A stretch of 64,000 nucleotides of DNA from an uncultured Kiritimatiellota bacterium (GTDB lineage Bacteria; Verrucomicrobiota; Kiritimatiellia; RFP12; DVOR01): positions 108,645-172,644 of the forward strand of contig CALXMT010000002.1 of assembly GCA_944389545.1 (NCBI GenBank), given 5' to 3'. Positions 4,143 through 48,512 of this stretch are shown here, piece after piece. A program made the position numbers and the translations under genes. Below the pieces are notes generated by a model. That model ran no database searches. It saw only the letters and a program-made list of their open reading frames with translations, and was not told where the DNA came from. Positions within the stretch are counted from its first letter, which is position 1. Every line of letters starts with the position of its first letter.

Positions 4143-5636
4143 TTATTGCACCGGCTCCATGTCGCCGGACATCATGTCGGGGTTGGTTTCGATGCGGTCC
4201 TTGAAACGCGTCGTGGCGCCGTCGAAGTTCAGGCGCACCTCGCCGGTGGCGCCGTTGCGGTTCTTCGACACGTCCACAATGGCCAGGAGACGGTCATCGT
4301 GCTCCGGCACGCGGCTGCTCATGAAGCTGGGCCGCCGCAACAACAAAATCACGTCCGCGTCCTGCTCGATGGCGCCGGAGTCACGCAGGTCGGAGTTCTT
4401 GGGCTTCTCGTCGCCGCCGCGCTGCTCCGGGTTACGCGACAGCTGGGAGAGGACGATGACGGGCACGTTCAGTTCCTTGGCCATCGCCTTGATCTCGCCC
4501 GAAATCTTCGCCACCATCACCTGCTGCCCCTGCTGGGCGAACTCGCGGTAGGAGAGCAATTGCAGGTAGTCGATAACGATGAGTTCCACGGGGTTGCGTT
4601 TATGGGCGTGACGCGCACGGGCACGCAGTTCCATCACGTCCAGACCGCCCTGGTCATCGCAGAGGATCGGCGTCTCCTGGAGTTCCTTCGCGGCGGATTT
4701 CAGGAGCGGCAAGACCACGTCCTTCTTGACGAACTGCCCCTTCTCCACCTCGCGCGCAGAGACCCCCGCGATACCGCAAAGCATACGCGTGGTCAGCTGC
4801 ATTTGCGGCATTTCCAACGAGAAGACCAAGACCGTGCGCTTCTTCACCCTGCCGTCTTCCGAGGGGAAGGGCCGTCCCATGATGTCGCGGCCGCGCGCCA
4901 CGCACTCGGCGATGTTCATTGCCAGCGACGTCTTGCCCATGGAAGGACGCGCCGCCAAAACAATCATTTCGCCCCGGTGCAACCCGCGCAGTTGGTTGTC
5001 CAACGCCTTGAAGCCCGTCGGGATACCGGAGAGTTCGCCGGGGTGCTCCAGTTGACGCGTCAGCATGGAGAGCGTCTCGTCCACCGAGGTTCGCCAATCC
5101 ACACTGGAGCCACTCTTGGTGCGCCCCTCGCCGATGCCCAGGATGGTCTGCTCGGCCATGCCCAGCACGTAGTCCGCGGACTGTGAGGCATCGTAGACAT
5201 TCGCCTCCACCTCGCGCACCGCGCCCAGGATGCAACGGCGCAGATACTGCTCCATCACCAGCTCGGCATAGTAACTCGCGTGCGCGCTGGTCGGGGTCCG
5301 CTCCATCAGCTCCGTGAGCGCCCGCAGACCGCCCACCGCGTCCAAGTCGCCCGTCCCCTTGAGGAAGTTCGACACCGTGATGCCGTCGACCGGCTGCCCC
5401 TTCGAGGCCAACCGCGTGATGGCGGCATAGATGCTGCGATGGGTCGGATCGACAAAAGCCTCCGCCACCAAACCCTTTGTGGAGCAGATGTCCAACACCC
5501 GCACCGGATCCAAGAGAATCGAACCCAACAACCCCTGCTCGGCCTCAATATCCTGCGGCAATTCACGGCGCAACGGCGCCTCCCCCGCCATCTCGGACAG
5601 GGGCATCTGCATCTCCACTCGCTTTTTTCTAGGCAT
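4143..5636 (-). CDS. dnaB: replicative DNA helicase DnaB
   Basis: N-terminal IEAEQGLLGSILLDP, Walker A ARPSMGKTSLAMNIA, and RecA-like C-terminal ...IVIDYLQLL...SQLSR. Confidence 0.9.
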   Translation of the reverse strand: MPRKKRVEMQMPLSEMAGEAPLRRELPQDIEAEQGLLGSILLDPVRVLDICSTKGLVAEAFVDPTHRSIYAAITRLASKGQPVDGITVSNFLKGTGDLDAVGGLRALTELMERTPTSAHASYYAELVMEQYLRRCILGAVREVEANVYDASQSADYVLGMAEQTILGIGEGRTKSGSSVDWRTSVDETLSMLTRQLEHPGELSGIPTGFKALDNQLRGLHRGEMIVLAARPSMGKTSLAMNIAECVARGRDIMGRPFPSEDGRVKKRTVLVFSLEMPQMQLTTRMLCGIAGVSAREVEKGQFVKKDVVLPLLKSAAKELQETPILCDDQGGLDVMELRARARHAHKRNPVELIVIDYLQLLSYREFAQQGQQVMVAKISGEIKAMAKELNVPVIVLSQLSRNPEQRGGDEKPKNSDLRDSGAIEQDADVILLLRRPSFMSSRVPEHDDRLLAIVDVSKNRNGATGEVRLNFDGATTRFKDRIETNPDMMSGDMEPVQ

Positions 5637-6336: not shown

Positions 6337-7206
6337 TCACAGCGCGGTAAAACAGTGAGACTCTAAGCAAAAGGCGTCAACATCCGATTTGAGGCTCTTG
6401 GCCGAGCAAGCGTTGTCCGTGTACAAGAAGAATGGGAGTGTTCCCTCATCTACCGTTTGCACGGGGCAAAGGTGCAACGCGGAAGCTTGCCGCTCTTTGG
6501 AAGAAGCACCAAGCGCATGGGCATTCGAGTTGGAGGGGTGAAGGTCTTTCTTCCTTCGCAACTCTTTCAGTTGGTCAGCCAAAAACGCTTGTGCGGACCC
6601 ACTCTCCATCTTACCTTCATAGAGGAAGATTTTGCGTGACCGCAATGTTCTCGCCCAGTCGCGGAAAGCTTGGGCCGTAGGCAATGCGCTCGGTTCCGCG
6701 AGCCTACCGAATCCGCGCGTGGCGCGGAGACCAAGCGCACCAACCCAAACGAAGGCTTGAACCGTCTCTTCTACTTGATCCCATAGGTTTGTCGGCACTG
6801 GGCGTACGGCTCGAATCTTGAGCGTGAACGTGCTTCCTGCGCCGATGTAATGTCCCTCTGTTGTACGGTAAACATTCTGCTTGTTGCCGGAGACCCGCGC
6901 GAAATACCCGATATAGCCCATCGGCGTGTCGTTGGGCAATGAGACAGCCCGCTGGTTGTTGACGATGTTGGTGTCTTCCACTCGCACGGCAATTGCCGAA
7001 GCGACGGCCCTAGATTCACCGTGGACACCGCCGAACAACACCTTTTCCTCTTCACGGACATCGCGATTTCCAGCCAAGACGCGGAACCACCAACGCAACG
7101 CTCCGCGGATGGAGGGCGCACGGATTTCAGGTTTGTTCTGGTCTGCCCCTGCAAGGAAGGTCGACGTGATGAAGGTCAGTTTTTTGGTGATTTCCTGTTC
7201 GTTCAT
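6337..7206 (-). CDS. cmr1: type III-B CRISPR RAMP subunit Cmr1
   Basis: 289 aa; KPEIRAPSIRGALRWWFRVLAG (Cmr1 RxxxRGxxRxW motif) and a glycine-rich loop GALGLRATRGFGRL. Last gene of the cmr operon. Confidence 0.7.
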   Translation of the reverse strand: MNEQEITKKLTFITSTFLAGADQNKPEIRAPSIRGALRWWFRVLAGNRDVREEEKVLFGGVHGESRAVASAIAVRVEDTNIVNNQRAVSLPNDTPMGYIGYFARVSGNKQNVYRTTEGHYIGAGSTFTLKIRAVRPVPTNLWDQVEETVQAFVWVGALGLRATRGFGRLAEPSALPTAQAFRDWARTLRSRKIFLYEGKMESGSAQAFLADQLKELRRKKDLHPSNSNAHALGASSKERQASALHLCPVQTVDEGTLPFFLYTDNACSAKSLKSDVDAFCLESHCFTAL

Positions 7207-8531
7207 GCTTGGCCTCCTTGCTTGGCTTTCATGGCCTCACGGATTGCCTTTTGTGCATCGCCGGGGAATCCTTTCACGCCATTGCGAATCTTGGCGTAGA
7301 CTTGCGCAGGAAGCGACCCGGCCTCCGAGAAGAGGGAGAGCATGGCTTCTCGACGTTCCGTGTTCGCCTTCAAGAATCCCTTGGCATCGTTAAGGATGCG
7401 TTTTTCGCTGTTCCAGGAGCGGCGCAGGATATCGACGGCGGATTCCTTAGGTAGGGCATTGTTGCACTTGGCTTTGAACTCGCGTAAGCGTTGGTTAATC
7501 GACTCATCTGCCTTTAAGGTTTCCGCTTCGGCCATCAGCGTTTCAGCCTGGCATTGCAGAGTGTGCGCGGTTTCGGGGGTAGGGGCCTCTTCCAAGAGCA
7601 TATTGACTGCCGTCCGGAGTGCGTCCAGACGGGCTCGGACTTGTTTGGCGGCAAGTACCTTTTCTCGCAACGCCTCGCGCTCTTGCGTGACGTTCTTGAA
7701 CCAACCGTAACCGGCGGCGGTTTTGGCGCCGGCGCCGTTCACGGTGATGGCCTCGATGAGCCACCGCTTGGCATCCGCCATGTTCGTTTCTTTGCAGTTA
7801 CGCAGGGGGACGAGAGGGAAGCAGAAGGTCACACCCGACTGGACAACAGGGAAGGCCTGGACATTGGGGTTCTCATCGTCCGTCGCTTGTGGCTTCTTTT
7901 CACCGTAATAGTCTTTGTGGTGGCAGGTGAGCACGTCGACTTCCAGATTCGCCTTGCCATCCGGGAAAGCACCCAAGAAGGCGACGCACCCGGCGTGATC
8001 TTGAACCTTTTTCCCTTCTTTCTCCCACATGGCCTTCAATTCCGCGTCCAATCCATCTTTGTCGTTGGTGGGATAGCCAAAGACCGTGGCGATGCGTTGG
8101 GCGATGGCCTTTTTCGTCTCGCCTTCTTCAGTCTTATTCCACTCGCACCAGGCTGCGTGGCGGGCGATGCCCTTCACCGCGCTCCCGGGCAGGTAGGGAT
8201 AGCCGAAGTGTGGGTGCAGGCAGATGTTCGCGTTCTCCAAGATGCCGCCGGCCAGGTTCACGGTCAGACGGCTCTGCAACTGTCCCCAGACACATTCAGC
8301 GCCTTTCGGCACGTCGTCCAAAAACGGTGTCTCCCCATACTTTTCCTGACACGCGCAGACCGCCTTCAATTCCTCCTGCTTGTTCCCACCTTCGCCGCCG
8401 ACCGTCACGAACTTCGTCAGGCGCAGCGATGGATTTTCGCATACGCGCTCGACGTCGCGCACGTTTTCCGGTGCACACCACCACGTCTTGGCCTTATCTC
8501 CCATCGCCATCCTCCTTACTGTTCTTTGCAA
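7203..8531 (-). CDS. cmr6: Cmr6 (Cas7-family RAMP) with ~150-aa C-terminal coiled-coil extension
   Basis: PYLPGSAVKGIARHAAW (Cas7 GSxxKG motif) and G-rich loop AKTAAGYGWF. C-terminal LREKVLAAKQVRARLDALRT...KAKQGGQA is extra relative to typical ~300-aa Cmr6. Confidence 0.65.
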   Translation of the reverse strand: MQRTVRRMAMGDKAKTWWCAPENVRDVERVCENPSLRLTKFVTVGGEGGNKQEELKAVCACQEKYGETPFLDDVPKGAECVWGQLQSRLTVNLAGGILENANICLHPHFGYPYLPGSAVKGIARHAAWCEWNKTEEGETKKAIAQRIATVFGYPTNDKDGLDAELKAMWEKEGKKVQDHAGCVAFLGAFPDGKANLEVDVLTCHHKDYYGEKKPQATDDENPNVQAFPVVQSGVTFCFPLVPLRNCKETNMADAKRWLIEAITVNGAGAKTAAGYGWFKNVTQEREALREKVLAAKQVRARLDALRTAVNMLLEEAPTPETAHTLQCQAETLMAEAETLKADESINQRLREFKAKCNNALPKESAVDILRRSWNSEKRILNDAKGFLKANTERREAMLSLFSEAGSLPAQVYAKIRNGVKGFPGDAQKAIREAMKAKQGGQA

Positions 8532-8904
8532 AACGGCGGAAGAAGGTCAGATAGGCCAGCACTTCTGCGGTGGTGACGCGCAACTGCATGGAGTCGGCTT
8601 TGGTCAACTCCTCGAACCACGTTGCCACATCCGTGGCTTTTCGCGCCGTCGCGTCATTGATGGCGGGGTCTTTCAAGTGGCGGAGGACGGCTTCGAAGAC
8701 TGCACGGTGTCCCTTCTTGTTGTCATCCGACAGCGCGAAGGCCATCGCGCCCAACAAGCCATGCATCACCACCATGCCGGGCACCTTCTTGGCGACGTCG
8801 CCGCCATCTTTGGCCTCAAACGTCTGGTCCTTGGACGCGGCGTAGGCGTTGAGCGCGCGGACTTGGTCGAGGCTTCTTTTGACTGCGGAGAGCGAAGCGA
8901 TCAT
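8494..8904 (-). CDS. cmr5: Cmr5 (Cas11 small subunit); start at internal MIASLS
   Basis: ~136 aa, all-helical small protein between cmr4 and cmr6. Its start abuts the cmr4 stop. Confidence 0.6.
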   Translation of the reverse strand: MIASLSAVKRSLDQVRALNAYAASKDQTFEAKDGGDVAKKVPGMVVMHGLLGAMAFALSDDNKKGHRAVFEAVLRHLKDPAINDATARKATDVATWFEELTKADSMQLRVTTAEVLAYLTFFRRFAKNSKEDGDGR

Positions 8905-9707
8905 TGCGCGTCCTCCTTGCAAGTGATGGTGCACCAACCGAGGCCCGTCGTGGCGTCTGCGCCGACTTGGAGCAGGTTATTTTCCTTCGTCAGTTGCTCT
9001 TGCAACTGCGTCAAGAGGGCGGGTTCATCGGCCATCAATTGCCCCACGAAGAGCGTTTCGGAGGGGACGTTCTCCTGCGCGAAGAGCGCACCGTTCGCGA
9101 CGGTACCGGTCGTGTCATCGATACGGTTGTGGTAGGCGATTTCGCAAGCGTTCTGCGCGAAGTGGGGCAGCACCGTGTCCGAGACCACGACCAGGCGGTT
9201 GTCCAAGGAACCCTGCCACAGCGTGTGCCCACAGAGCGGCTTCAAGGCGGCTTTCAGGTTTTCCGGCAAGTCTCCGGTGCGTTTCAGACGATACTCTTCC
9301 AACACCACATCGTTCTCAATGGCGACCAACCCTTCCGGCGCGAGCACGGCGTCTTCGCCCACTGCTGGGCAGTCAATGCCGAGCCGCGCCAAGGTCAGGG
9401 GCGAGGTCAACCACGCGAATCCACCCTTGGCCGAGCGCACGGGGAAGGCTACTAACCGAGCCTCGCCCACCAAAATCTTGCCGCGTCCGTTTTGTTCCCC
9501 AAAGAGCAAGTTTTGCGTCTGGGGATCGGTAAACAGGTCGCGCAACACGCCCTTCAGCGCAGAGCCGGGCACGGTCGGGAAGCCGGTGGCACGCTCGCGC
9601 AGGACGGGCAAGTCCACCACGCCCACAGAACTGCCACATCCCACATGGAGCGGCGTGCGCGTGAACAACGAAAAGGTCAGCGTCTTCATCTCAGTCTCCT
9701 CAATCAA
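8901..9707 (-). CDS. cmr4: Cmr4 (Cas7 backbone subunit)
   Basis: MKTLTFSLFTRTPLHVGCG...FPTVPGSALKGVLRDLF (Cmr4 signature) and G-rich loop GADATTGLGWC. Confidence 0.75.
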   Translation of the reverse strand: MIEETEMKTLTFSLFTRTPLHVGCGSSVGVVDLPVLRERATGFPTVPGSALKGVLRDLFTDPQTQNLLFGEQNGRGKILVGEARLVAFPVRSAKGGFAWLTSPLTLARLGIDCPAVGEDAVLAPEGLVAIENDVVLEEYRLKRTGDLPENLKAALKPLCGHTLWQGSLDNRLVVVSDTVLPHFAQNACEIAYHNRIDDTTGTVANGALFAQENVPSETLFVGQLMADEPALLTQLQEQLTKENNLLQVGADATTGLGWCTITCKEDAQ

Positions 9708-10845
9708 GGTGCAAATAGGAACACACGCCTAGGCCGAAACCCTTTTCGCCCAGGTCGGAACGTTGGCTCAGGTGCAGGACTTCAATCAACTTCGCAGCCT
9801 CGGCCGTGTCGGCGCATTCAAAGACGTAGCAAGCCCCTGCGGGGACGGCCAGTTCTGTGGGCTTGGCCCCATCCAGGGAGTCCCACCCTGAAAAGACCAC
9901 GGGAGTGCCGATGCGCGCGGCGATGAGGTGTGCGGAAGGGAAGGGTTTCAATTCCGCCTTGGCCCGTGCCCGCCAGGCCTTGCGCGATTCACCGGGGTGC
10001 CGCTCCACTTCGTTCATAGGAATCATTACGTGCCCGGCCTCATCGAGCCAGTTCGGATACCATCCCTTCATGAAGAGGGCCGGCGCCAAGAGCGTCCACC
10101 GCACGAACCGCGAGGGCGTTCCCTGCGGCAGAGCCTTCAAGCGCGCATCGAGGCTCGCACCTCGCACCGCGTCAAAGCGCACTGTGCCGCCCTGCCCGCC
10201 GAAACGCACGTCGTGTCCGGCCAACGTCGCGGACTTCTCCTGGCGCACATCGCACAGCATGGAGACACCCGGGGTCAACCGCAACGTCTCCATCCACCAC
10301 TGTCCGCTGAGTGCATTCTGGTCCCGCACCGACGTGTGCTTGGTGTCGTCAAGCGTTGTCCCTACGCGCGGTTCCCTGTGGTATAGTTCCGGGATTTTAG
10401 TCTCCACGCCTGCAACCGTCTCCCCGCGCAGATAACATGCGTATCCTTCGGTCGAAACCCATGCGGGGAGCGACTTCTTGCCTTCGGTGTTGTCCAGGAA
10501 ACCATGCGTCAGCGGCGCGGGCAGGTCTGTTGTCTCCTTTGTGATGGGGATTAGCTTCATGTCCCAGTCCAAAGGCCTTGGTAGGTAGAGCGTTCCCTCG
10601 CGCAGGGGGAAAGGGCCGCGAACCGCCAAGTCGGTCACGCTTCCATAGTGCTGAACCTCCGGTTTATCCGGGTCACCGAGCAACGTGTGGATGACGGCAC
10701 TGAAGAGCAGGTCCGGTCGCGGCCAATTGGCCCCGTGGCCCACCATCCGCAGGTTGGTACTTTGGCGTTTTTGGGTATCCATGGGTCGCGCGTCTCGGAA
10801 AAAGAGCACGTCCCGCGGCGTCAGTTCATAAGAGAGTGCATCCAT
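9700..10845 (-). CDS. cmr3: Cmr3 (Cas5-family subunit)
   Basis: 381 aa; N-terminal LTPRDVLFFRDARPM typical of Cmr3 and C-terminal glycine-rich loop GEKGFGLGVCSYL. Confidence 0.7.
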   Translation of the reverse strand: MDALSYELTPRDVLFFRDARPMDTQKRQSTNLRMVGHGANWPRPDLLFSAVIHTLLGDPDKPEVQHYGSVTDLAVRGPFPLREGTLYLPRPLDWDMKLIPITKETTDLPAPLTHGFLDNTEGKKSLPAWVSTEGYACYLRGETVAGVETKIPELYHREPRVGTTLDDTKHTSVRDQNALSGQWWMETLRLTPGVSMLCDVRQEKSATLAGHDVRFGGQGGTVRFDAVRGASLDARLKALPQGTPSRFVRWTLLAPALFMKGWYPNWLDEAGHVMIPMNEVERHPGESRKAWRARAKAELKPFPSAHLIAARIGTPVVFSGWDSLDGAKPTELAVPAGACYVFECADTAEAAKLIEVLHLSQRSDLGEKGFGLGVCSYLHLD

Positions 10846-12212
10846 TATTTATCCTCCCCCTGGCGCCACAGGAACGCCACACTCAGGAAAAGTCCCAGGA
10901 AGTCCTCCGCACGTGTTTTGCATTCCATCTTTAGGAAGGTTGCCAGCTTCGCCATGTCCAGCTTTCCTTTCATACCGTCCGTTCGCTCGATGGCGAAAGT
11001 CGTCTCCGCCAAGATAAGATCGGCCAAATCAGACGGCAACTCTCCTTTCAGTCCATAGGGCTGCAACAGTGCGGCCAACTTGTAGGGGAAACGCCCTGCC
11101 ACGTCCTTGCCGCATTGCGCGAAGGCATCAAAGAGGTCCAAACCGCAAGCGTCCCACGCTTCTCCATCTTGCTTGTATTTCCATTTGCTTCCCCACCATA
11201 GGATTTCACCTGACCGCTTGTGGATGGCCAGCGCCAACGCATTGCGGCCATAGGCCTCCTTTGCGCGGTGTTCCGCTTCCCGGGCGCGATTCACCAGTTC
11301 TTGCAAGGGCACGCTCTTGTGCCCGATGGCCACCCCCGCCGAGGCCGTCCCGCCGATCTGCGCGGAGAAATCTGCGGCCAACGCTTTCGCGCATGCCACA
11401 GCCAGATGCGCCGGCAACACTGCCAGCACATCGTCCCCGCCCACGTAGATGGATTGGCCTTGATAGTCTTTGATACGAGCTTCCGCCTTCGGGGCGAAGT
11501 TCAACAACAGTTCGCTGAATGCTTGGTGCTCCGCCTCGGTCTTGAAGGCACTCAAGCGCTTCCCCATTGTGTCGCCGTCCATCATGAGGACCGCCACGTA
11601 ATCGTCTTGTTTCACGGGGTCGTCAAAGGGAGCTTCTTCCGCGTGCAATCGCTTGATCAAGTTCATCGCGCCGAAGCCCAGCTTCTTGTCCAACACCGTC
11701 TCTTTGCCAGAGAGGATGTCCTTTGGATACTTGGTCGCCTCTTCCGGCCATGCGTCAAACTCGCGCGTGTTACGCCGTGCGGCCAACAATGCGCCGATGG
11801 TCTTGTAATCCTGACCCATATCGCCGGAGGGCTCCTCCAGGATTGCCCAAGAGGTTTGCGGGAAGGCCTTCACCTGCAGCAGAAAGGTCCCATCATGCGA
11901 CCACTCTGGGTGCACCTTCAATGCGCTTTCCGCCATTTCTCGCAACGCCGTTCGGAGCGCATCCGCCATCGCGCGCGCTGTTTCCGTAGCTGTTTCGCGC
12001 GGCACAAAGGCCAAGACGCGGTTCGGTAGACCAGGCCCCTCTCGTTTTGCCGGGAAGACCTCTTCGGCGCCCTCGGGCAATACCTTGAGCACTGTCTCTG
12101 TCAACTTTGACAACAAATCCGACCCCGCCCACAAATCTTGCGCGGTCTCGGCCTGTGCGATGAATCCCTGCACAGGCCCAAACTGAAAAAGCAACAACGC
12201 CTTGTCCTTCAC
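10845..12212 (-). CDS. cas10: Cas10/Cmr2, minimal form lacking HD domain, with intact GGDD cyclase palm (GTG start)
   Basis: 455 aa; LLLFQFGPVQGFIAQA (Cas10 post-HD motif), AVLMMDGDTMGKRL (palm metal-binding D) and IYVGGDDVLAVLP (GGDD). No H-HD-H-D motifs. Confidence 0.7.
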   Translation of the reverse strand: MKDKALLLFQFGPVQGFIAQAETAQDLWAGSDLLSKLTETVLKVLPEGAEEVFPAKREGPGLPNRVLAFVPRETATETARAMADALRTALREMAESALKVHPEWSHDGTFLLQVKAFPQTSWAILEEPSGDMGQDYKTIGALLAARRNTREFDAWPEEATKYPKDILSGKETVLDKKLGFGAMNLIKRLHAEEAPFDDPVKQDDYVAVLMMDGDTMGKRLSAFKTEAEHQAFSELLLNFAPKAEARIKDYQGQSIYVGGDDVLAVLPAHLAVACAKALAADFSAQIGGTASAGVAIGHKSVPLQELVNRAREAEHRAKEAYGRNALALAIHKRSGEILWWGSKWKYKQDGEAWDACGLDLFDAFAQCGKDVAGRFPYKLAALLQPYGLKGELPSDLADLILAETTFAIERTDGMKGKLDMAKLATFLKMECKTRAEDFLGLFLSVAFLWRQGEDK

Positions 12213-12225
12213 GGCAAGCCTCCTC

Positions 12226-12684
12226 TCAAATCCGTTTCATCCACCTCAGACGCAACACGTGCCACCCTGTGATTGCCGACGGCGCCGCCGCCTGGCCCGG
12301 GGCCGGTCGGCCTCCCCCTGCCACATCCGGCGACAACACATAACATTCCGCGAAGCATTCCCCGTCCAATTCCGGCAATCCCTCCGCGTTCAACCGCAAT
12401 GCCGGGCGCGGCACCCGCGGCTTCAACGTTCCCGCCGACACCCCCAGAAAGGCCTCCGCCGCACCCTGCGTCTCCGCGTGTCCCCAGAACGACCGAACCA
12501 CCGCCCCAGACGCCAACGCCTCCCGCAAGGTCTCCACCCTTATTTCCTCGATCTCCACACGCCACCCCCGCACCAACGTCAACGGGAAGGTATTTCCAAT
12601 CAACAACGTCCCACTCACGCCTTCGCCTCCCACTTTCCTGGCCTCCAGTTCCGGATGGCCTGGACGACATAATCGTTTGGGCAT
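12226..12684 (-). CDS. hypothetical protein (152 aa) between card1 and cas10; coding status uncertain
   Basis: ATG-initiated ORF in a locally GC-rich 400-bp gap. Overlaps the card1 3' end by ~70 nt and has no recognisable motif. Several alternative frames are also open. Confidence 0.3.
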   Translation of the reverse strand: MPKRLCRPGHPELEARKVGGEGVSGTLLIGNTFPLTLVRGWRVEIEEIRVETLREALASGAVVRSFWGHAETQGAAEAFLGVSAGTLKPRVPRPALRLNAEGLPELDGECFAECYVLSPDVAGGGRPAPGQAAAPSAITGWHVLRLRWMKRI

Positions 12685-13811
12685 GGCATCGGTAACTCTA
12701 GCAACATCAAATTACCGGCATCTTCGATTCGGGTCAATAGGTTTTGATAATCGGTCTCTACGTTTCCTTTGGTGTGCCCCAAGTTCTTGGAGGATGTCAC
12801 CAAGATTCCGCGTCCAAATGTACCACCATACTCATCAACAATATCACTGAATCGCTGAATTTGCTCGGAACTCACATACCCAGACTTACACTCTACAAGG
12901 TAAAGGCAGAATCCATCCGTGAATGAAACGTCAAATTCTTGCCTAGGCACACTTGTATCCTCAAAGGAGATACTTGCACCCCGTTGAAAATCATAACATC
13001 CTGGCAACCGTTTCACTTGACAGAGTACGTATGTCTCCAACCAAAGCCCTGTCACAAAACGGCAGGTCTCGATATCCCCTTTTGTCTGGCGCACGTTACT
13101 CAACAATCTCACACACCGCTCCGTTGCGGCACGGTCACGTGTTTTGTCCAAGAAATGTTTGGCTAAAGCGTCCAAATCTCCAGATAATACAGACTTAGCA
13201 TATTTTTGCATATCGCCTAGATGGTCGCTCATCTTACCGATATAACCACGGAATCCCCATCGATGTGCGCAAAGGGCACCTGCCAATTCCTCTTCTTCTT
13301 GAGAAACACCCCACTCGCCTGGGACGAAGATATCGGAAGAGCAGAGGCGCACGAATTGTTCTACGGTGGAGAATCCGCGTCTCAGATGCACTTCGCGGTC
13401 TCCACCCACATCAAGTACCCTGCGCGACTGTGTGTCTACATAAAAACACGATAATCCCGTCCAAGCATTAACTAAAGACAATGCCATCAGCTTGGTTCCG
13501 CCCGTGACGTTCGCGGCCACGGATTGCCCCTTATACTCCTCGTGTAGAGCAACAAAATCTTCTCGTAGACGCCGTTGGTTATACGAATCCACCAACTTAA
13601 TCGCTATCGGCATTTCGGCAGTGGCAAACACTGACACTAATCGTTTCGCGACCACCTCTGTCTTTTCTGTTGCCAATAAGATATGCGTTTTGGCCGGAAC
13701 ATTCAGAATGGCGAATGCCACCGGTAATTCCTGTTCGCCAATCAAATGCAATACGACATCAAACACAGACAGATTCTCTCCAAGCTTACTCATCGATCGC
13801 TCCTTGCTCAT
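12615..13811 (-). CDS. can2: CARF-domain + PD-(D/E)xK nuclease, Card1/Can2-like cyclic-oligoadenylate-activated effector
   Basis: ~398 aa; N-terminal Rossmann-like CARF with VTGGTKLMALSLVN. C-terminal EFDVSFTDGFCLYLVECKSG supplies the D...ExK catalytic triad. First gene of the cas operon next to the array. Confidence 0.65.
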   Translation of the reverse strand: MSKERSMSKLGENLSVFDVVLHLIGEQELPVAFAILNVPAKTHILLATEKTEVVAKRLVSVFATAEMPIAIKLVDSYNQRRLREDFVALHEEYKGQSVAANVTGGTKLMALSLVNAWTGLSCFYVDTQSRRVLDVGGDREVHLRRGFSTVEQFVRLCSSDIFVPGEWGVSQEEEELAGALCAHRWGFRGYIGKMSDHLGDMQKYAKSVLSGDLDALAKHFLDKTRDRAATERCVRLLSNVRQTKGDIETCRFVTGLWLETYVLCQVKRLPGCYDFQRGASISFEDTSVPRQEFDVSFTDGFCLYLVECKSGYVSSEQIQRFSDIVDEYGGTFGRGILVTSSKNLGHTKGNVETDYQNLLTRIEDAGNLMLLELPMPCPNDYVVQAIRNWRPGKWEAKA

Positions 13812-13847
13812 CAAACATCGTTAATCCTACCCCAAACTCCCAAAAAA

Positions 13848-16394
13848 GTCAACCATCCTCGCCTTTCGGTTGAAGGATGGTTGCGAGTCGTACGGGAAGT
13901 AGGACGACCCCGATGCCCTGTCGCAACGGGCTCTTGGCTGAGGGATGGTTGCGAGCTAAGTCATTGGTACAAGGAAGTCGAGTTGTCGCAACCGCCTTTC
14001 GGCTGAGGGATGGTTGCGAGGGCACGGCTCCCCAAGGAACCTACGTTCTTCAAGGTCGCAACCGCCTTTCGGCTGAAGGATGGTTGTGAGGGAGGGCAAG
14101 CTCTGCGCTCGACTCTCCATCTACGTCGCAACCGCCTTTCGGCTGAAGGATGGTTGTGAGACCATGCCAGAAAGGTATGGAGAGCTCGCCACAAGTCGCA
14201 ACCGCCTTTCGGCTGAAGGATGGTTGTGAGCTTAGTCGAGAAGACTAAGAAATTTTGGAAGGAAGTCGCAACCGCCTTTCGGCTGAAGGATGGTTGTGAG
14301 ATGGTCTCACGGCCTCAACCCGCAGCCCTGCAAAGTCGCAACCGCCTTTCGGCTGAAGGATGGTTGTGAGTCATCATCCACAACGGCTGCCTCACCCGCG
14401 CCGAGTCGCAACCGCCTTTCGGCTGAAGGATGGTTGTGAGTTACATCCAATGGATATGGATTTGATGAGGCTGTGTCGCAACCGCCTTTCGGCTGAAGGA
14501 TGGTTGTGAGACAAGGTCCAAAGAACGATTCATAAGGTCCATGTGTCGCAACCGCCTTTCGGCTGAAGGATGGTTGTGAGTTAAAGGTGTGGACCCCAGC
14601 TCCCTCTCGGAGTCTGTCGCAACCGCCTTTCGGCTGAAGGATGGTTGTGAGCCTATGGCTTTGACGAAAACGCCATCTTCCACATGTCGCAACCGCCTTT
14701 CGGCTGAAGGATGGTTGTGAGTTAAAGGTGTGGACCCCAGCTCCCTCTCGGAGTCTGTCGCAACCGCCTTTCGGCTGAAGGATGGTTGTGAGCCTATGGC
14801 TTTGACGAAAACGCCATCTTCCACATGTCGCAACCGCCTTTCGGCTGAAGGATGGTTGTGAGACTGATGCAGATTGAACTCGCCGCCCTGATGGAGTCGC
14901 AACCGCCTTTCGGCTGAAGGATGGTTGTGAGATGGGTGCCACCAAACCGCTTTCGACTTCTTTGAGTCGCAACCGCCTTTCGGCTGAAGGATGGTTGTGA
15001 GTGTGCGGCTATCCCGTGTTTATCTGTCAGCTGACGTCGCAACCGCCTTTCGGCTGAAGGATGGTTGTGAGCCAACAGAACCCGTTTCATAGATGAGAGC
15101 TCCAGTCGCAACCGCCTTTCGGCTGAAGGATGGTTGTGAGTTCTTGGCCTGGTCGCGTTTGTCGGAACGGATGTGTCGCAACCGCCTTTCGGCTGAAGGA
15201 TGGTTGTGAGTGCGGGGGCCTTGAGCGTCGCCGAGCTTGTCTGTGTCGCAACCGCCTTTCGGCTGAAGGATGGTTGTGAGAGCTCAACGCCCTCCTCAAC
15301 GCGCGCGCCGAGGAGTCGCAACCGCCTTTCGGCTGAAGGATGGTTGTGAGCACGGAGCGCCGGAGGCGCCCAAAAATCGCAGATGTCGCAACCGCCTTTC
15401 GGCTGAAGGATGGTTGTGAGGCCGAAAAGAAGCCCGAGCCCGCCGCCAAGCCTTGTCGCAACCGCCTTTCGGCTGAAGGATGGTTGTGAGACGTCAAGCC
15501 AGTTCGTCGTCGCGTTCTCCTGCGTGTCGCAACCGCCTTTCGGCTGAAGGATGGTTGTGAGTCGGAGGATGGCACCCTCCAGTTGCGCAATCTGGGTCGC
15601 AACCGCCTTTCGGCTGAAGGATGGTTGTGAGGTCACGGAAGAGACCGAGACGCTCTACGAGAGCGTCGCAACCGCCTTTCGGCTGAAGGATGGTTGTGAG
15701 TTGGCGACACCGTCCCCGTCTCCGCCACCGAGACGTCGCAACCGCCTTTCGGCTGAAGGATGGTTGTGAGTGGCCGGCGTGACCGCCAACGACGCCTTGG
15801 TCCGGTCGCAACCGCCTTTCGGCTGAAGGATGGTTGTGAGTCGTCTCCAATGCAGTTCAGTGTCGTGGCTCAAGTCGCAACCGCCTTTCGGCTGAAGGAT
15901 GGTTGTGAGCCGTCCAGAGGCGCGTCGTCCGGCCCTGGTCTGTCGCAACCGCCTTTCGGCTGAAGGATGGTTGTGAGCGGAAAAATCCGCGGCCTCGGCT
16001 CCACCGACGCGTCGCAACCGCCTTTCGGCTGAAGGATGGTTGTGAGTTTCCCCATCGGGCCTCGCCACGATGGGCACCAGGTCGCAACCGCCTTTCGGCT
16101 GAAGGATGGTTGTGAGTCCCGCTCGACGTGCTCATGCTTTGGTTTTCCGAGTCGCAACCGCCTTTCGGCTGAAGGATGGTTGTGAGGGGAATGCCGCATG
16201 ATGCCCTATGACGTTTGCGCGTCGCAACCGCCTTTCGGCTGAAGGATGGTTGTGAGTTGGAGTTAATGGAGACCACTCCGGTGGACATGGTCGCAACCGC
16301 CTTTCGGCTGAAGGATGGTTGTGAGCGCCAAGGCGCAGAAGCTCGCCGAGGAGGCGGGGTCGCAACCGCCTTTCGGCTGAAGGATGGTTGTGAG
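13848..16394 (-). CRISPR. CRISPR array, 37 repeats of 36 bp (GTCGCAACCGCCTTTCGGCTGAAGGATGGTTGTGAG), 36 spacers of 29-37 bp; leader at 16.4-kb end, degenerate repeats at 13.85-kb end
   Basis: Direct repeats every 69-72 bp. The three leftmost repeats are mutated (trailer end) and an AT-richer leader lies right of 16394. Inferred transcription is toward lower coordinates, co-directional with the cas genes. Confidence 0.95.
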
Positions 16395-16631: not shown

Positions 16632-16768
16632 GGCGGACCACTATAGGGTCTCGGTGTGGACCCCTATAAGGGTTGACCGCGGACCCCTATAAGGGTTGGC
16701 CGCGGACCACTATAGGGTCTCATCTGCGACCACTATAGGGGTCGGGGCGGACCCTTATAGGGTCTGAA
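16632..16768. repeat. iteron cluster A: six tandem ~22-bp units with near-palindromic core GACCACTATAGGGTC / GGACCCCTATAAGGGTTG, preceded by AGGGGTGTTGG
   Basis: Read directly from the sequence; cognate cluster at 47262..47400. Confidence 0.8.
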
Positions 16769-16782
16769 GGGCGGCTGGCGCC

Positions 16783-16855
16783 GCCCCGGAGAACGGAGAA
16801 CAGAGAACGGAGAACGGAAACGCCCCTGCGGGGCGACGGGCGAAGCTCCGAGAAG
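16783..16855. repeat. GAGAACR heptad tandem repeat + CCCCTGCGGGGCGACGGGCG module (mosaic intergenic repeat family)
   Basis: Same module at 22622-22735, 25995-26125, 33045-33215, 53487-53600 and inverted at 53700-53765. Confidence 0.7.
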
Positions 16856-16985: not shown

Positions 16986-17031
16986 GAACCAAACTTCTAA
17001 ACTTCCAAACTTCTAAACTTCTAAACTTCCA
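16986..17031. repeat. AAACTTCY octamer tandem repeat
   Basis: aacttctaaacttccaaacttctaaacttctaaacttcc; related copies at 26245-26275, 33476-33510 and 52600-52630. Confidence 0.7.
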
Positions 17032-17095: not shown

Positions 17096-19600
17096 TTACT
17101 TGACCTGGAAGGAGGGGAGGTGCCAGATGTCTTCGGCGTATTCGCGGATGGTGCGGTCGCTGGAGAACTTGCCGGCGGAGGCGACGTTCATCAGGGAGGC
17201 TTTGTTCCAGGCGGTCTGGTCGCGGTAGAGGGCTTCGACGCGGTCTTGGGCCTTGATGTAGTCGGGCAGGTCTTTGAGGAGCATGTAGTAGTCGTTGTAG
17301 TCCAGGAGGTTCTGGAGGAGGGGCTCGAAGATTCCGGGGGCCATGAGGGAGAAGACGTTGCGGCGGATCATGTCGAGCGCGCGCTTGATCTCGGGGTTGC
17401 TCTCGTAGATGGCCTTGGAGTTGTAGGTGGGGCGGAGTTTGGCGACTTCTTCGGTTTTGAGGCCGAAGATGACGATGTTGTCGTCGCCGACTTCCTGGGC
17501 GATTTCGACGTTTGCGCCGTCGAGGGTGCCGAGGGTGATGGCGCCGTTGAGCATGAGTTTCATGTTGCCGGTGCCGGAGGCCTCGGTGCCGGCGAGGGAG
17601 ATTTGCTCGGAGACGTCGGCGGCGGGGATGATTTTCTCGGCGAGGGAGACGCGGTAGTCGGGGAGGAAGGCGACGGCGATGCGGCCCTTGACGAGGGGGT
17701 GGGAGTTGACGACGCTGGCGACGCCGTGGATGAGGCGGATGATGAGCTTGGCGACCCAGTATCCGGGGGCGGCTTTGGCGCCGAAGACGAAGACGCGGGG
17801 GTAGACGTCGAGGTCGGGCTTTTCAATCAGGCGATTGAAGAGGATGATGATGTAGAGGACGAGGAGGAGCTGGCGCTTGTACTCGTGGAGGCGCTTGACC
17901 TGGACATCGAAGATGGCGTCGGGGGAAACCTGGAAGCCGAGGGTGTTGAAGATGGTGTTGGCGAGGATTTCCTTGTTGGCGCGTTTGATTTCGGCGAAGC
18001 GCTTGAGGAAGGCTTTGTCGTTGACCTTGGCTTTGAGCTTGGAGAGCTGGCTGAGGTCGGTGACCCAGCCGTCGCCGATGGTCTCGGTGATGAGGGCGGC
18101 GAGGCGGGGGTTGGCCTTGAGGAGCCAGCGGCGCTGGGTGATGCCGTTGGTCTTGTTGGAGAAGTGGGTGGGCATGATCTCATAGAAGTCCTTGAAGATG
18201 GTCTTCTTGAGGATCTCGGTGTGGAGTGCGGCGACGCCGTTGACGGCGGAGGTGCCGACGAGGCAGAGGTTGGCCATGCGGACGAATTTATCGCCGCTTT
18301 CGTCGATGAGGCTCATGCGGGCGAGGCGGGCGACGTCGCCGGGGAAGAGGGTGGCGACCTGCTGGAGGAAGCGTGCGTTGATCTCGTAGATGATCTGCAT
18401 GTGGCGGGGGAGGACGCGCTCCATGAGGGGGACGGGCCACTTTTCGAGGGCTTCGGGGAGGACGGTGTGGTTGGTGTAGCCGGTGCAGGCGCGGACGTAG
18501 GTCCAGGCGTCGTCCCAGGTGAGGCCTTCGACGTCCACGAGGATGCGCATGAGCTCGGGGATGACGAGGGTGGGGTGGGTGTCGTTGAGCTGGATGAAGA
18601 CGTACTTGGGGAGGTGGCGCCATTCGTGGCCTTCCTCGCGGAAGCGGCGGAGGATGTCGTGGACGGAGGCGGCGACGAAGAGGTATTGCTGGCGGAGGCG
18701 GAGCTCTTTGCCGGCGGTGGTGGAGTCGTTGGGGTAGAGGACTTTGGTGAGGTTCTCGGCGAGGACTTTGCTTTCGACGGCTTCGACGTAGTCGCCGCGG
18801 TTGAATTCGTCGAGGGAGAATTCGTTGGTGGCTTTGGCGCTCCAGAGGCGGAGGGTGGAGACGGTTTTGCCTTGGTAGCCGACGATGGGGAGGTCGTAGG
18901 GGACGGCCTGGACCTGTTGCGCGGGGACCCAGACCCATTCGTCGCGGCCGGTGCGGCCGGTGTAGTGCTCGACGTGGCCGCCGAAGCCGATGAGGCAGGC
19001 GTATTCGGGGCGCTGGATTTCCCAGGGGTAGCCGTATTTCAGCCAGTTGTCGGGCTCTTCGCGCTGTTCGCCGTTGACGATGCGCTGGCGGAAGATGCCG
19101 TAGTCGTAGCGCAGGCCGTAGCCGGTGGCGGGGAGGTTGAGGGTGGCGAGGGAATCCATGAAGCAGGCGGCGAGGCGGCCGAGGCCACCGTTGCCGAGGC
19201 CGGCGTCCATCTCGTAGTCGCGGAGGCGGTTCCAGTCCAGGCCGAGGGAGTCCATGGCTTCGCGGCACTGCTGCTCGAGGCCGAGGTTGATGACGTTGTT
19301 GCCGAGGAGGCGGCCGATAAGGAACTCGAGGGAGAGGTAGTAGACGCGGCGGACCTTGGCGGCGCGGTAGGCGTCTTGGGTGGCCATCCAGCGGTCGACG
19401 ATGCGGTCGCGCACGGCATAGGCGAGGGCTTTGTAGCAATCGCGTTCGGTGGCTCGGTCGCCGCTCTTGGCGAGGGAGAAACGCATGTTCCAGAGGAAGT
19501 CCTGGGCGAGGCCCTCGGCGGTGAACTCAGCGGAGGGGTGGTTGCCGGGCAGGACGACCTTTTCGGTGGTTTTGTCCTTGGTCTTGGTGGACGTGCTCAT
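17096..19600 (-). CDS. glgP: glycogen/maltodextrin phosphorylase
   Basis: 834 aa; EFLIGRLLGNN, NGGLGRLAACFMDSLATL and the pyridoxal site EASGTGNMKLMLNGA. Confidence 0.95.
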   Translation of the reverse strand: MSTSTKTKDKTTEKVVLPGNHPSAEFTAEGLAQDFLWNMRFSLAKSGDRATERDCYKALAYAVRDRIVDRWMATQDAYRAAKVRRVYYLSLEFLIGRLLGNNVINLGLEQQCREAMDSLGLDWNRLRDYEMDAGLGNGGLGRLAACFMDSLATLNLPATGYGLRYDYGIFRQRIVNGEQREEPDNWLKYGYPWEIQRPEYACLIGFGGHVEHYTGRTGRDEWVWVPAQQVQAVPYDLPIVGYQGKTVSTLRLWSAKATNEFSLDEFNRGDYVEAVESKVLAENLTKVLYPNDSTTAGKELRLRQQYLFVAASVHDILRRFREEGHEWRHLPKYVFIQLNDTHPTLVIPELMRILVDVEGLTWDDAWTYVRACTGYTNHTVLPEALEKWPVPLMERVLPRHMQIIYEINARFLQQVATLFPGDVARLARMSLIDESGDKFVRMANLCLVGTSAVNGVAALHTEILKKTIFKDFYEIMPTHFSNKTNGITQRRWLLKANPRLAALITETIGDGWVTDLSQLSKLKAKVNDKAFLKRFAEIKRANKEILANTIFNTLGFQVSPDAIFDVQVKRLHEYKRQLLLVLYIIILFNRLIEKPDLDVYPRVFVFGAKAAPGYWVAKLIIRLIHGVASVVNSHPLVKGRIAVAFLPDYRVSLAEKIIPAADVSEQISLAGTEASGTGNMKLMLNGAITLGTLDGANVEIAQEVGDDNIVIFGLKTEEVAKLRPTYNSKAIYESNPEIKRALDMIRRNVFSLMAPGIFEPLLQNLLDYNDYYMLLKDLPDYIKAQDRVEALYRDQTAWNKASLMNVASAGKFSSDRTIREYAEDIWHLPSFQVK

Positions 19601-19629: not shown

Positions 19630-20004
19630 TTAGCGGGCGGACTTGGCGTTGCGGGCCTCGTTGCCGCGGGATTTGCGGCCCATGCCGGGTTTGCCGTTGC
19701 GGGCTTCGTTGACGCGGAGTTCGCGGCCCATGACGGTTTTCTTGTTGAGGGCCTTGATGGCCTTTTCGGCCTCGACGCGATAGACCATCTCGACGAAACC
19801 GAAGCCTTTGCTCTTGTTGTTGAAGCGGTTGGTGATGACACGGGCGTCGCGGACGGTGCCGTATTTGGCGAAGAGCTTTTCGAGCTGTTCGTCGGTCATG
19901 TCATAGTTCAGGTTGCCGGCGAAAATCTCGATGCGTTCCTGGGGGCCGGTGGGGGCCTTCTTGCGGATGCCGAAGAGGGCGAGCAAGGGGGAGAAGATGC
20001 TCAT
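19630..20004 (-). CDS. RRM-type RNA-binding protein
   Basis: IFAGNLNYDMT (RNP2), KGFGFVEM (RNP1) and a C-terminal RG-rich tail. Confidence 0.8.
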   Translation of the reverse strand: MSIFSPLLALFGIRKKAPTGPQERIEIFAGNLNYDMTDEQLEKLFAKYGTVRDARVITNRFNNKSKGFGFVEMVYRVEAEKAIKALNKKTVMGRELRVNEARNGKPGMGRKSRGNEARNAKSAR

Positions 20005-20048: not shown

Positions 20049-22469
<2,421 letters not shown>

Positions 22470-22912: not shown

Positions 22913-24580
22913 TCAGCGTTCGCCGAGGAAGCCGTCGAGTTTCTTGATGCGCGAGGGGTGACGGAGCTTGCGCAGGGCCTTGGCTTCGATTTGGCGGATG
23001 CGCTCGCGCGTGACGTTGAATGCCTTGTTGACCTCGTCGAGGGTGTGCACGACGCCGTCCGTGAGGCCGTAACGCATATCGAGGACCTCGCGATCGCGCT
23101 CATTGAGAACAACGAGTACTTCGCGCAGACGCTCTTTGAGTTGGGCGAAGGCGGCGGCATCCTCGGGGCGCTCGGCGTCTTCGCCGTCGTCAACGGGGCT
23201 CTGCAGGGAGCTGGGTTGCTGGGCCATGCGGCAGATGTTGCGGATGCGTTCGACGGGCATGCCCATTTCCTCGGCGGTCTCCTCCGGAGTGGGCTCGCGG
23301 CCGAGTTCCTGGAGAAGCTTCTTCTGCGCACGGAGGAGCTTGTTGATGGTCTCAATCGTGTGCACGGGGATGCGGATGGTGTGGGCTTGGTCGCCGGTGG
23401 CACGGGTGAGGGTCTGGCGGATCCACCAAGTGGCGTAGGTGGAGAACTTGTAGCCGCGCTTGTACAGGTCCACGAACTTCTCGACGGCCGTCATGAGACC
23501 GGTGTTACCCTCTTGGATGAGCTCGAGGAGGCTGAGACCGCGGTTCATGAACTTCTTGGCGATGGAGACGAGAAGGCGGAGGTTCGCCTCGATCACTTTA
23601 CTTCGGTTCTGGGTAATCAAGTGGAGTGCTTGGCGAAGCTCTTTGAACTTCTCCATGAAGAGGTCAGCGGGCATGCCGAGGGCCTGTTCGGCCTCATCTC
23701 GGGCGGCTTCGGCCTTGGCGACATGCTGGGCCTTAGTCTTGCTCTCGGCCTTCTGGGCCTTTTTGAGAGCCGCGATGGCGCTGGCGTAGGGCTTGTAATA
23801 GCACTTCTCCGCTTCGATGCAGATGTCCTCCAGTATCTTTTGCTTGAAGTGGAGCGAGTCGTACTTGGTACGCAACGCCTCGCACAAGGCTTCGATTTGC
23901 TTGTCAGCCTTGTCCAGGGCGTCGGTGTCCTCGGGATTGAGATTGGCGCGGGCCATGTAGGCCTCGGCCATGCGGTCGCCCAAGCGGTTGAGCGCCTCTT
24001 GCTCCGGGTGCATCGTCTCGACGTACTCGTCGCGTTTCTTGTCGGTCTTGGCGACCACGCGGTTGAACCTCTCGCGGCCGGCCTCCAGGTCGCTCAAGAC
24101 TTGGGCGTAGAGGCGCGGGGCCATGGGCAACTGGTTGAAGACCTCGAAGATGACCCTTTCGCCGGCCTCGATGCGCTGGAAGATTTCCACCTCCTGCTCG
24201 CGCGTCAGTAGGGGCACTTTGGAAATTTGGCGCAGGTAGATGCGGATGGCGTCGTCGCAGTGATCCTCGCGTTTGGCGGAGGCCTCCCCCTTATATTCAT
24301 CGAGCGCGTCCAAATCTTTCTGGTCGTGGGCCCTCTTGGCTTCTTTTTCGGATTCGTTGAAGACCGCGCGCAGGACAGACCCTTCGCACAGACCGTCGAG
24401 GGACTCCTCGTCGTCGGCCATGTCCTCCGCGTCGGTGTACGCATTGTCTAGCGATTCCTTCTCGAGGTCCATCCTCGAGTCGGCGACGGCAGGCTTTTGG
24501 GGCTCAGTTTCCGGTTTGTCTTGCTTCGTAGCCATAGGTGAGAAACGCTCCTTGGGGGTGTTCGGTTGGTTTTGCCACAA
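22913..24580 (-). CDS. second sigma-70 family factor, RpoD paralog (tandem to rpoD)
   Basis: 555 aa; C-terminal 300 aa nearly identical to the upstream RpoD (…[34 protein letters not shown]) with a divergent N-terminus. Confidence 0.85.
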
Positions 24581-47261: not shown

Positions 47262-47400
47262 TAAGGGTCCGAGGTGAGACCCTATAGTGGTCGGGGTCGA
47301 GACCCTATAGTGGTCGGGGTCGAGACCCTATAGTGGTCCATGGTCGACCCCTATAGTGGTCCAGAACGAACCCTTAAGGGGTCCGCAACAGACCCCTTGC
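47262..47400. repeat. iteron cluster B: six tandem ~22-bp units (core GACCCTATAGTGGTC, flanking AACCCTTAAGGGGTCC), preceded by AGGGGTGTTGG
   Basis: Cognate of the cluster at 16632-16768; followed 12 bp later by a solo MITE TIR at 47412-47455. Confidence 0.8.
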
Positions 47401-47499
47401 TCTCGTACAAACCAATAGTGTCCGGGGAAAAAGAGATGGACCGCAAAGACGCAACTCTTGCAGGAAGATGAGGCGTCATTGAATCTTCTAAGTTTCTTG

Positions 47500-47640
47500 T
47501 GCGCCTGGGGTTGTTTCCAAAGAAATGATGGAAACACAAGGGAAGGGCACGGTAGAGAGGCCGTAAGGCCGAACGGTGAAGTGCCCAGGCCCTTGTGTTC
47601 CTTTCGTGTTTTCGTGGAAACATCCTCGGACAGTGTTGGC
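47500..47640 (+). ncRNA. candidate structured RNA / cis-regulatory leader upstream of PNPOx/Nim gene
   Basis: Nested helices are visible: GTTTCCA..TGGAAAC, ACAAGGG....CCCTTGT enclosing GGGCAC..GTGCCC and a GGCC-GUAA-GGCC tetraloop hairpin, then GTTCC..GGAAC. Lies in the untranslated gap before 47702. Confidence 0.3.
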
Positions 47641-47701
47641 CTAGCAGTGTGATAAAATAGGGCCAAAGCTCTAGACGGGACTTTTGAGTGAGGACGCGAC
47701 C

Positions 47702-48184
47702 ATGAGAAGAAAAGAACGTGAAGTGACAGATCTCAACGAGATTAAGGATATTCTGACACGGGCCGAGGTTCTCCGGGTCGCCTTGAACAACGGCGACTAT
47801 CCCTATCTCTTCCCGGTGAACTACGGATTTGTCATGGATGGCGCACAGTTGGTGCTCTTCTTTCATGGGGCGAAGGAGGGTGCCAAACACGCCATTATCG
47901 CGCGGGACAACAAGGTCACCTTTGAGGTCGATTGCGGCCATGCGCTGATGCAACCGCTCGGCGAGGAATCCTGCACTAGCAGTTTCGCCTATGAAAGCGT
48001 CATCGGAACCGGCACGATTGAAAAGGCCGCGGACTCAGAAAAAGAAGCCTTACTGCCCCTGTTGCTGGAACATTATGGAATCACGGCAAAGCATTTCAAT
48101 CCCGTACATCTGGCCAATACGGTCGTCTACAAAATCACGGCAACGACCTACACGGCCAAGCGCAGAGTCAACGACCGACTCTGA
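47702..48184 (+). CDS. pyridoxamine 5'-phosphate oxidase-family FMN-binding protein (Nim-like); start at MRRKEREV
   Basis: ILTRAEVLRVALNNGDYPYLFPVNYGF and the split-barrel PNPOx pattern. Confidence 0.7.
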   Translation: MRRKEREVTDLNEIKDILTRAEVLRVALNNGDYPYLFPVNYGFVMDGAQLVLFFHGAKEGAKHAIIARDNKVTFEVDCGHALMQPLGEESCTSSFAYESVIGTGTIEKAADSEKEALLPLLLEHYGITAKHFNPVHLANTVVYKITATTYTAKRRVNDRL

Positions 48185-48512
48185 TAGATGCCGATAAAGT
48201 GTAAACCCGCAAAGCGACCGGTGTTACTCCATCCGGCGTCGCGTGTACTGGTGTCTTCGCGGAAAGACTTCCTCGAATGCTCTTGTGCTTGACGGGGTGG
48301 TGCGGGATGATATAAACTAACCACATCAGTACGAAGGGACTCGTAAATGGCGTTCACTGCAATGTGTTTGAAGCTTGGCGTTGTGGCGATGCTCACGGCG
48401 CAGGGCAACGCCGTGCGGAGGGCGTTTGTGTGGGATTTCACGAAGCCGGTTGCCACACTGCCCTTTTCGTTGAGATAGGTGCAGTGGGTGAAGTCAACGT
48501 CACGACTGTTGA

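Follow-up and report, generated by a model that had tools for sequence, protein, structure and literature searches.

An intact, compact Cas10/Cmr2 with a conserved cyclase motif in a type III-B CRISPR locus of an uncultured Kiritimatiellota bacterium

We analyzed a short Cas10 gene within a 64,000-nucleotide (nt) stretch of DNA from an uncultured Kiritimatiellota bacterium (GenBank assembly GCA_944389545.1, contig CALXMT010000002.1, positions 108,645 to 172,644), hereafter called the window. The open reading frame (ORF) at positions 10845..12212 on the minus strand encodes the intact large subunit, Cas10/Cmr2, of a type III-B CRISPR system that is ordinary in other respects. Its product of 455 amino acids (aa) is probably a functional Cmr2 of a Cmr complex, compacted to Palm1, a 53-aa linker, a Palm2 with the GGDD motif and the helical D4 domain, and signalling through cyclic tetra-adenylate (cA4) to a Can2/Card1 effector. 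The protein scored well above the Pfam cutoffs for Cas10-Cmr2_palm2 (PF22335; E=3.7e-32, 111.7 bits against a cutoff of 27) and Cmr2_N (PF12469; E=9.8e-14, 51.8 bits against 25), as well as above that of the NCBIfam Cas10/Cmr2 equivalog TIGR02577 (140.2 bits against 79.4), and the PADLOC Cas10 profiles matched it at about 1e-60. We found 294 homologues, and the best 120 of these (down to 44% identity) are almost all 440-495 aa long and align over 98-100% of the query. Given these family scores and the homologues, mostly of equal length, the ORF lies far beyond chance. A member of the same clade (MGN0891152.1, from Candidatus Spyradenecus, Lentisphaerota) carries the Prokaryotic Genome Annotation Pipeline label "type III-B CRISPR-associated protein Cas10/Cmr2". 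The assignment to Cas10/Cmr2 is further borne out by two palms and a helical D4, by the GGDD motif with an upstream metal-binding aspartate, and by a context of cmr3-4-5-6-1 and a CRISPR array; what the protein lacks is the N-terminal HD domain and, between the palms, the zinc finger and the helical D2 domain. The gene starts with GTG at 12210-12212 and stops at 10845-10847. A Shine-Dalgarno sequence, GAGGAGG (12219-12225, minus strand), lies 6 nt 5' of the GTG and extends into the stop codon of the gene before it. At the other end of cmr2, its stop codon shares bases with the start of cmr3 (TAATG at 10845), so that cmr2 sits in a translationally coupled operon.

An AlphaFold2 (AF2) model of the protein, built from a 60-sequence alignment, reached a predicted local distance difference test score (pLDDT) of 91.9 and a predicted template modeling score of 0.90, and its domain boundaries are listed in Table 1 together with the residues that are invariant over 60 clade sequences at 45-93% identity. 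The protein begins exactly at the Cmr2_N/Palm1 beta-1 motif LLLFQxGPVQxFIAQA and contains neither an H..HD..D motif nor a CxxC, and no cysteine column is conserved in the alignment of the clade. An earlier note on this DNA had described a 455-aa ORF with a GTG start and the motifs MMDGDTMGK and YVGGDD, which we place at aa 210-218 and aa 256-261. It had suggested that the protein may be a stripped-down Cas10 that lacks HD motifs and keeps its cyclase, a view that holds, and it had given the protein an N-terminal region of only about 210 aa and a helical tail; Palm2 starts at about aa 204 and the D4 helices span aa 356-452. The note's single recognisable palm needs correcting, as the AF2 model contains a Palm1 at aa 1-150. 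To our knowledge, Palm1 lacks a GGDD in every Cas10, and with a Palm1 present here this feature does not distinguish the protein. What sets the protein apart is that it has lost roughly 50-150 aa more, mainly in the zinc-finger/D2 insert between the palms.

This loss can be located by comparison with solved structures, a step that the earlier note had itself suggested. On the Cmr2 of the type III-B complex DtCmr (PDB 9arw, 612-aa construct), which is HD-less too, 429 of the 455 residues of the model superpose. In a profile-to-PDB alignment, the main deletion lies between the palms, where about 32 query residues (169-201) stand against about 143 in DtCmr2 (183-327) and about 210 in Pyrococcus furiosus Cmr2 (PfCmr2). 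It is here that canonical Cas10 carries its zinc finger and helical D2 domain (10.1101/2020.06.24.163345). PfCmr2 has both in its inter-palm region; the 455-aa protein has neither, and it also lacks the N-terminal HD domain of about 215 aa found in PfCmr2 (PDB 4w8y, full length; 3w2w and 4h4k, Cmr2dHD). Unlike DtCmr2, the protein has no cysteine at the zinc-knuckle position, which reads KDILSGKE. This KDxLSGKE motif is a cysteine-free remnant of the zinc finger and, together with the helix GAMNLIKR, occupies the place of D2. The same pattern holds when the short clade is set against its relatives. Palm1 measures 145-155 aa in the short clade and 176-222 aa in HD-less relatives of the same phyla, and the linker 49-61 aa against 90-117 aa; the 53-aa linker of the protein itself stands against 80-117 aa in longer relatives from Planctomycetes-Verrucomicrobia-Chlamydiae (PVC) phyla. 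Compared with HD-less relatives, Palm2 is essentially unchanged and D4 mostly so (100-109 aa, with one member, L011, at 146 aa, against 105-144 aa). The spacing of RFPYK and R450 within D4 resembles that of the conserved Tyr/Arg pair in D4 of SisCmr2, which contacts the catalytic loop of Cmr4, and the two pairs may correspond. One short-clade member of 399 aa (P0097, on a 3.5-kb ENA contig) lacks the whole inter-palm linker, with RRK running into YVAVLAMDGD, and thereby also the otherwise invariant KDxLSGKE and GAMNLIKR motifs. This single occurrence could represent a natural variant of still smaller size, or else an artefact of deletion or of assembly.

The genes around cmr2 are those of a conventional signalling system. 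On the minus strand, their order is CRISPR array, can2/card1, a 135-aa Crn2-like gene and cmr2-3-4-5-6-1. The can2/card1 product matched PF23400 (30.5 bits against 24.6) and PF09002 (36 bits against 26.4), and its best PDB match was Can2 (7bdv), with D...ECK aligned. Read on the minus strand, the CRISPR repeat closes with GTTGCGAC, an 8-nt tag typical of type III, and the tag of the CRISPR RNA (crRNA) is GUUGCGAC. A degenerate repeat at the gene-proximal card1 end of the array places the leader at 16395 onward. Two adjacent spacers are duplicated exactly within positions 14581-14826 (14581-14615 equals 14722-14756, and 14652-14685 equals 14793-14826), which indicates a repeat-mediated internal duplication of this block.

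We propose that crRNAs would be read from the neighbouring array of 34 spacers, on the strand of the cmr genes, and would guide Cmr1-6 to complementary transcripts, and that Cmr4, which has its catalytic-loop aspartate, would cut the target RNA. Target binding would switch on the composite Palm1/Palm2 pocket to polymerise ATP to cA4, cA4 would activate the neighbouring Can2/Card1 CARF-nuclease, and the 135-aa protein, which has a DUF1874 fold, would degrade cA4 and thereby reset the response. Because the protein has no HD domain, this system lacks the DNase arm of Cas10, and immunity must run entirely through signalling and RNA cleavage by Cmr4. A comparable case is the Vibrio metoecus VmeCmr system with NucC (PMC8682760), as judged from its description: it likewise has an HD-less Cas10, and its immunity is expected to act via an ancillary nuclease activated by cyclic oligoadenylate (cOA). 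The VmeCmr effector is NucC, whereas here it is Can2/Card1 with cA4, and our Cas10 is the shorter one, with neither zinc finger nor D2. Of the possible messengers, cA4 appears the likeliest product, since effectors of the Can1-2 class are cA4-activated (PMC11229360), loci that have effectors contain ring nucleases only together with cA4 effectors (10.1101/2024.09.24.614671), and AcrIII-1/Crn2 is specific for cA4 (10.1101/778746).

The candidate ring nuclease lies between can2/card1 and cmr2, separated from cmr2 by a 13-nt gap and read in another frame. The AF2 model of its product (pLDDT 85) was searched with Foldseek, and all PDB matches with E<0.1 (2j6b, 2j85, 6scf, 2x4i and 8y7g/8y7f; probability 0.77-1.00) were DUF1874 structures, including AFV3-109, STIV B116, AcrIII-1 (6scf) and Csx1-Crn2 (8y7g). 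Its homologues are stand-alone proteins of 124-153 aa with invariant GNTF, SFWGH, RP, SPD and GxRPA motifs. N14 (of GNTF) and H52 (of SFWGH) are invariant, and their spacing, compared by sequence only, resembles that of N8/H47 (H47 of SIRV1 gp29). Genes of this type adjoin cmr2 in many Lentisphaerota, Kiritimatiellota and Verrucomicrobiota loci, and they also precede long HD-bearing Cmr2 genes. Searches of Pfam (DUF1874 model included), NCBIfam, PADLOC and PHROGs gave no match to the 135-aa protein, 16 of its homologues also had no Pfam match, and phmmer against PDB sequences returned nothing.

Several points weigh against our proposal. Enzymatic activity and its product are read from motifs and neighbours, and we infer the cA4 messenger and its regulation in the same way. 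In studied complexes, among them SisCmr-beta and EiCsm, the zinc finger and D2 move on activation and make contact with the stalk loop of Cmr3 and the target's 3' anti-tag (10.1101/2020.06.24.163345; PMC11734703), and a Cmr2 devoid of both could have altered or weakened self/non-self control. The 135-aa protein is a ring-nuclease candidate with modest Foldseek E-values (3e-4) and no sequence-family match; Csx16 also resembles 2J6B (10.1101/2024.09.24.614671), and the protein may resemble Csx16 more closely than Crn2. Five spacers had no exact protospacer in a viral contig collection. Finally, no cas6, cas1 or cas2 adjoins the locus or lies in the low-GC island at 47-52 kb of the window, so crRNA processing and adaptation must come from elsewhere.

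The alternative that fares best holds that the cyclase is active and makes another signal, namely cA3, cA6 or SAM-AMP (a conjugate of S-adenosyl methionine and AMP). Product spectra vary among Cas10 proteins and are not readable from sequence, and one HD-less III-B Cas10, that of Bacteroides fragilis, is a SAM-AMP synthase (PMC10600005). However, the sole effector in the locus belongs to the Can2/Card1-like, cA4-activated class, no CorA, NrN or SAM-lyase genes were found in the locus, and the protein encoded next to cmr2 has the fold of the cA4-specific AcrIII-1/Crn2, which together make a different messenger unlikely. Less probable still is that the 455-aa Cmr2 has become purely structural, with a dead or vestigial cyclase, and that the system relies solely on RNA cleavage by Cmr4. 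In favour of this is the loss of the HD, zinc-finger and D2 domains. Against it, no catalytic motif varies within the clade, while inactive subtypes carry other residues at these positions (PMC12669027), and a CARF effector and a ring-nuclease candidate stand beside cmr2 in many loci, an arrangement that is sensible only with signalling. The subtypes in question, III-G and III-H, likewise show reductive evolution of the large subunit, but in the opposite direction: their cyclase residues have been exchanged, HD is retained, cOA effectors have gone and, in III-H, D4 is replaced (PMC12669027). In the 455-aa Cmr2, the cyclase is intact, HD is lost, and D4 and the effector are kept, and the protein belongs to neither subtype.

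We find that the short length is a property of a clade. The identical 455-aa protein was called on 18 contigs of independent assemblies. Searching 1.84 billion representative proteins with a profile gave about 17 clusters that scored above 460 bits and measured 445-510 aa, after which lengths jumped to 536-1059 aa; with 3,557 Cmr2 representatives matching at E<1e-30 in the same search, the short clade is rare (about 17 of 3,557). It occurs in gut metagenome-assembled genomes (MAGs) of Lentisphaerota, Kiritimatiellota and Verrucomicrobiota, the species-representative MAGs being labelled Kiritimatiellaeota, Candidatus Spyradenecus, Lentisphaeraceae and Verrucomicrobia UBA740, and the best species-representative match (54% identity) comes from a Kiritimatiellaeota MAG. 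One more short-form contig sits in a Faecalibacterium bin, apparently through mis-binning. Among the next relatives, which come from the same phyla, HD-less forms measure 535-604 aa and HD-bearing ones 760-890 aa, the latter with about 190-240 additional N-terminal residues that include an LHDPP motif. In a small neighbour-joining tree (431 shared columns, no bootstrap support), the short clade was monophyletic. HD-less and HD-bearing forms were interleaved in it, which suggests that HD has been lost repeatedly. Sub-500-aa GGDD Cmr2s also occur in a separate, mainly Chloroflexota lineage (about 496-530 aa), and 455 aa is thus the low end of a continuum and not a discontinuity. The 600-900 aa that the earlier note had taken as the canonical size of Cas10/Cmr2 is too high a baseline, given that TIGR02577 has 510 positions and that there are many HD-less Cmr2s in the range of about 500-610 aa. 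A recognisable HD domain was reported for the Cas10 of only 39% (437/1,113) of surveyed type III loci, the other 61% being without one (PMC11229360). That survey covered only complete genomes and discarded all proteins below 500 aa as non-functional, and the short clade, which is known from MAGs only, falls outside its census for both reasons.

This distribution also bears on a concern raised in the earlier note, that the ORF and region 12226-12684 might together make up one longer Cas10 split by a sequencing frameshift. An assembly error could have the same effect, leaving the ORF as the C-terminal part and the region as the missing N-terminus. The upstream ORF does abut cmr2 in a different frame, and many PVC relatives have Cmr2s of 760-890 aa with an N-terminal HD domain. 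Yet recurrence on the 18 contigs, the shared length and start of clade members down to 44% identity, and the strong Shine-Dalgarno site before the GTG all argue against a break. In addition, the alignment of the protein with the solved HD-less DtCmr2 begins at the first residue of DtCmr2 and that with PfCmr2 directly after the HD domain, and the region upstream is a separate, conserved gene (the 135-aa gene and its stand-alone homologues) that is also found before a long Cmr2 (L017, 823 aa). We therefore reject a fusion of cmr2 with the upstream ORF as barely credible. Equally hard to credit is an mCpol-like minimal polymerase that acts alone and constitutively outside a Cmr complex: mCpol of Panoptes (PF18182) is a single homodimerising, constitutively active palm that makes 2'3'-c-di-AMP without a crRNA complex (PMC12657230) and is paired as a stand-alone palm with a 2TM-beta (two-transmembrane) effector, whereas the 455-aa protein scored 23.2 bits against the PF18182 cutoff of 26.4 and combines two palms and D4 in a cmr operon.

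The order crn2-like, cmr2, 3, 4, 5, 6, 1, with can2/card1 nearby, recurs in PVC relatives at any Cmr2 length. We considered whether other subunits compensate for the lost parts of Cas10 and found no support for it: long Cmr6 proteins (400-550 aa) and Cmr3 proteins of similar size also accompany Cmr2s of 800-890 aa, and Cmr5 lengths overlap between loci with short and long Cmr2. The C-terminal extension of Cmr6 is thus not a compensation for the short Cas10, as long Cmr6 also occurs in relatives with a long Cmr2.

Table 1. Coordinates of the type III-B locus and of the domains of Cmr2 (positions in the window; residues called invariant are so in 60 clade sequences).
Feature	Position	Strand	Details
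cmr1	6337..7206	-	289 aa
cmr6	7203..8504	-	433 aa; predicted-helical C-terminal extension of ~160 aa following the RAMP domain; TIGR01898 matched up to aa 279
cmr5	8494..8904	-	136 aa
cmr4	8901..9689	-	262 aa; catalytic-loop Asp (VVDLP)
cmr3	9700..10845	-	381 aa
Cmr2 D4 helical C-terminal domain, aa 356-455	10848..11147	-	five helices at aa 356-452; invariant RFPYK, R450
Cmr2 Palm2 cyclase domain, aa 204-355	11148..11603	-	metal-binding D212-G-D214 at nt 11571-11579; D212-G-D214, S291, G293, E314, K318 invariant
Cmr2 GGDD catalytic hairpin, aa 258-261	11430..11441	-	G258-G-D-D261 invariant
Cmr2 inter-palm linker, aa 151-203	11604..11762	-	53 aa; isolated strands and one helix (GAMNLIKR); invariant KDxxSGxE, GAxNLxK
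Cmr2 Palm1, aa 1-150	11763..12212	-	ferredoxin-like beta-alpha-beta-beta-alpha-beta (AF2); invariant FQxGPVQxFIxQA, PNR, RRNxRxF
Candidate cA4 ring nuclease, DUF1874 (AcrIII-1/Crn2-like) fold	12226..12633	-	135 aa; AF2 and Foldseek
can2/card1-like CARF and PD-(D/E)xK nuclease effector	12615..13814	-	gene callers start at 13793
CRISPR array	13985..16394	-	35 repeats of 36 nt, 34 spacers of 32-35 nt

The locus has a GC content of 0.53-0.60, against 0.63-0.68 in its flanks, which carry the housekeeping genes glgP (17096-19600), dnaB (4143-5636) and bamA. Between glgP and the CRISPR leader, short tandem repeats are present on the plus strand, (CGGAGAA)x5 and (AAACTTCT)x5, at 16787-16822 and 16991-17029. 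A 23-nt tandem unit with a palindromic core (GACCCTATAGTGGTCC) forms two clusters in the window, with 8 matches where 0.34 would be expected. One cluster lies just past the CRISPR leader (16633-16765) and the other at the edge of a low-GC island (47278-47362), and the unit may be an intergenic element resembling repetitive extragenic palindromes or an insertion-site marker. The island itself (47351-52354; GC 0.50-0.53 against 0.62 for the window) holds ORFs at 48513-49661, 49894-50376, 50501-51718 and 51884-52354, some of them rich in transmembrane segments, and none matched Pfam, PHROGs or PADLOC. On the minus strand, two sigma-70-family paralogues (20049-22469, 806 aa, and 22913-24580, 555 aa) adjoin an RRM-domain protein (19630-20004).

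Overall, the ORF encodes a compact variant of a well-known enzyme and is not new in kind, and the system around it, a III-B complex with Can2/Card1 and a ring nuclease, is conventional. In the literature, we found no description of a Cas10 that has lost both zinc finger and D2 yet keeps its active site intact, and for short, compact or minimal Cas10 proteins in a Cmr operon we found only mCpol and engineered truncations. We tentatively raise the possibility that this PVC clade contains the smallest natural cyclase-competent Cas10 in a multi-subunit type III effector, in which the zinc finger and D2 would be dispensable for cOA synthesis gated by target RNA, self/non-self gating would be left to Palm1, Cmr3 and D4, and a sequence-orphan branch of DUF1874 ring nucleases would be the partner. 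Two blind spots of existing surveys follow from our observations: the short clade and the mainly Chloroflexota Cmr2s of about 500 aa would be wholly or partly invisible to a census that drops proteins below 500 aa (PMC11229360), and the 135-aa gene, as a sequence-orphan ring-nuclease candidate, would be missed by surveys based on hidden Markov models. If the enzyme is active, Palm1, Palm2 and D4, about 450 aa in all, would constitute a natural minimal core sufficient for RNA-gated cOA synthesis. Such a core would help to ask which parts of Cas10 transmit activation and anti-tag discrimination, and to build smaller type III diagnostic or signalling modules.

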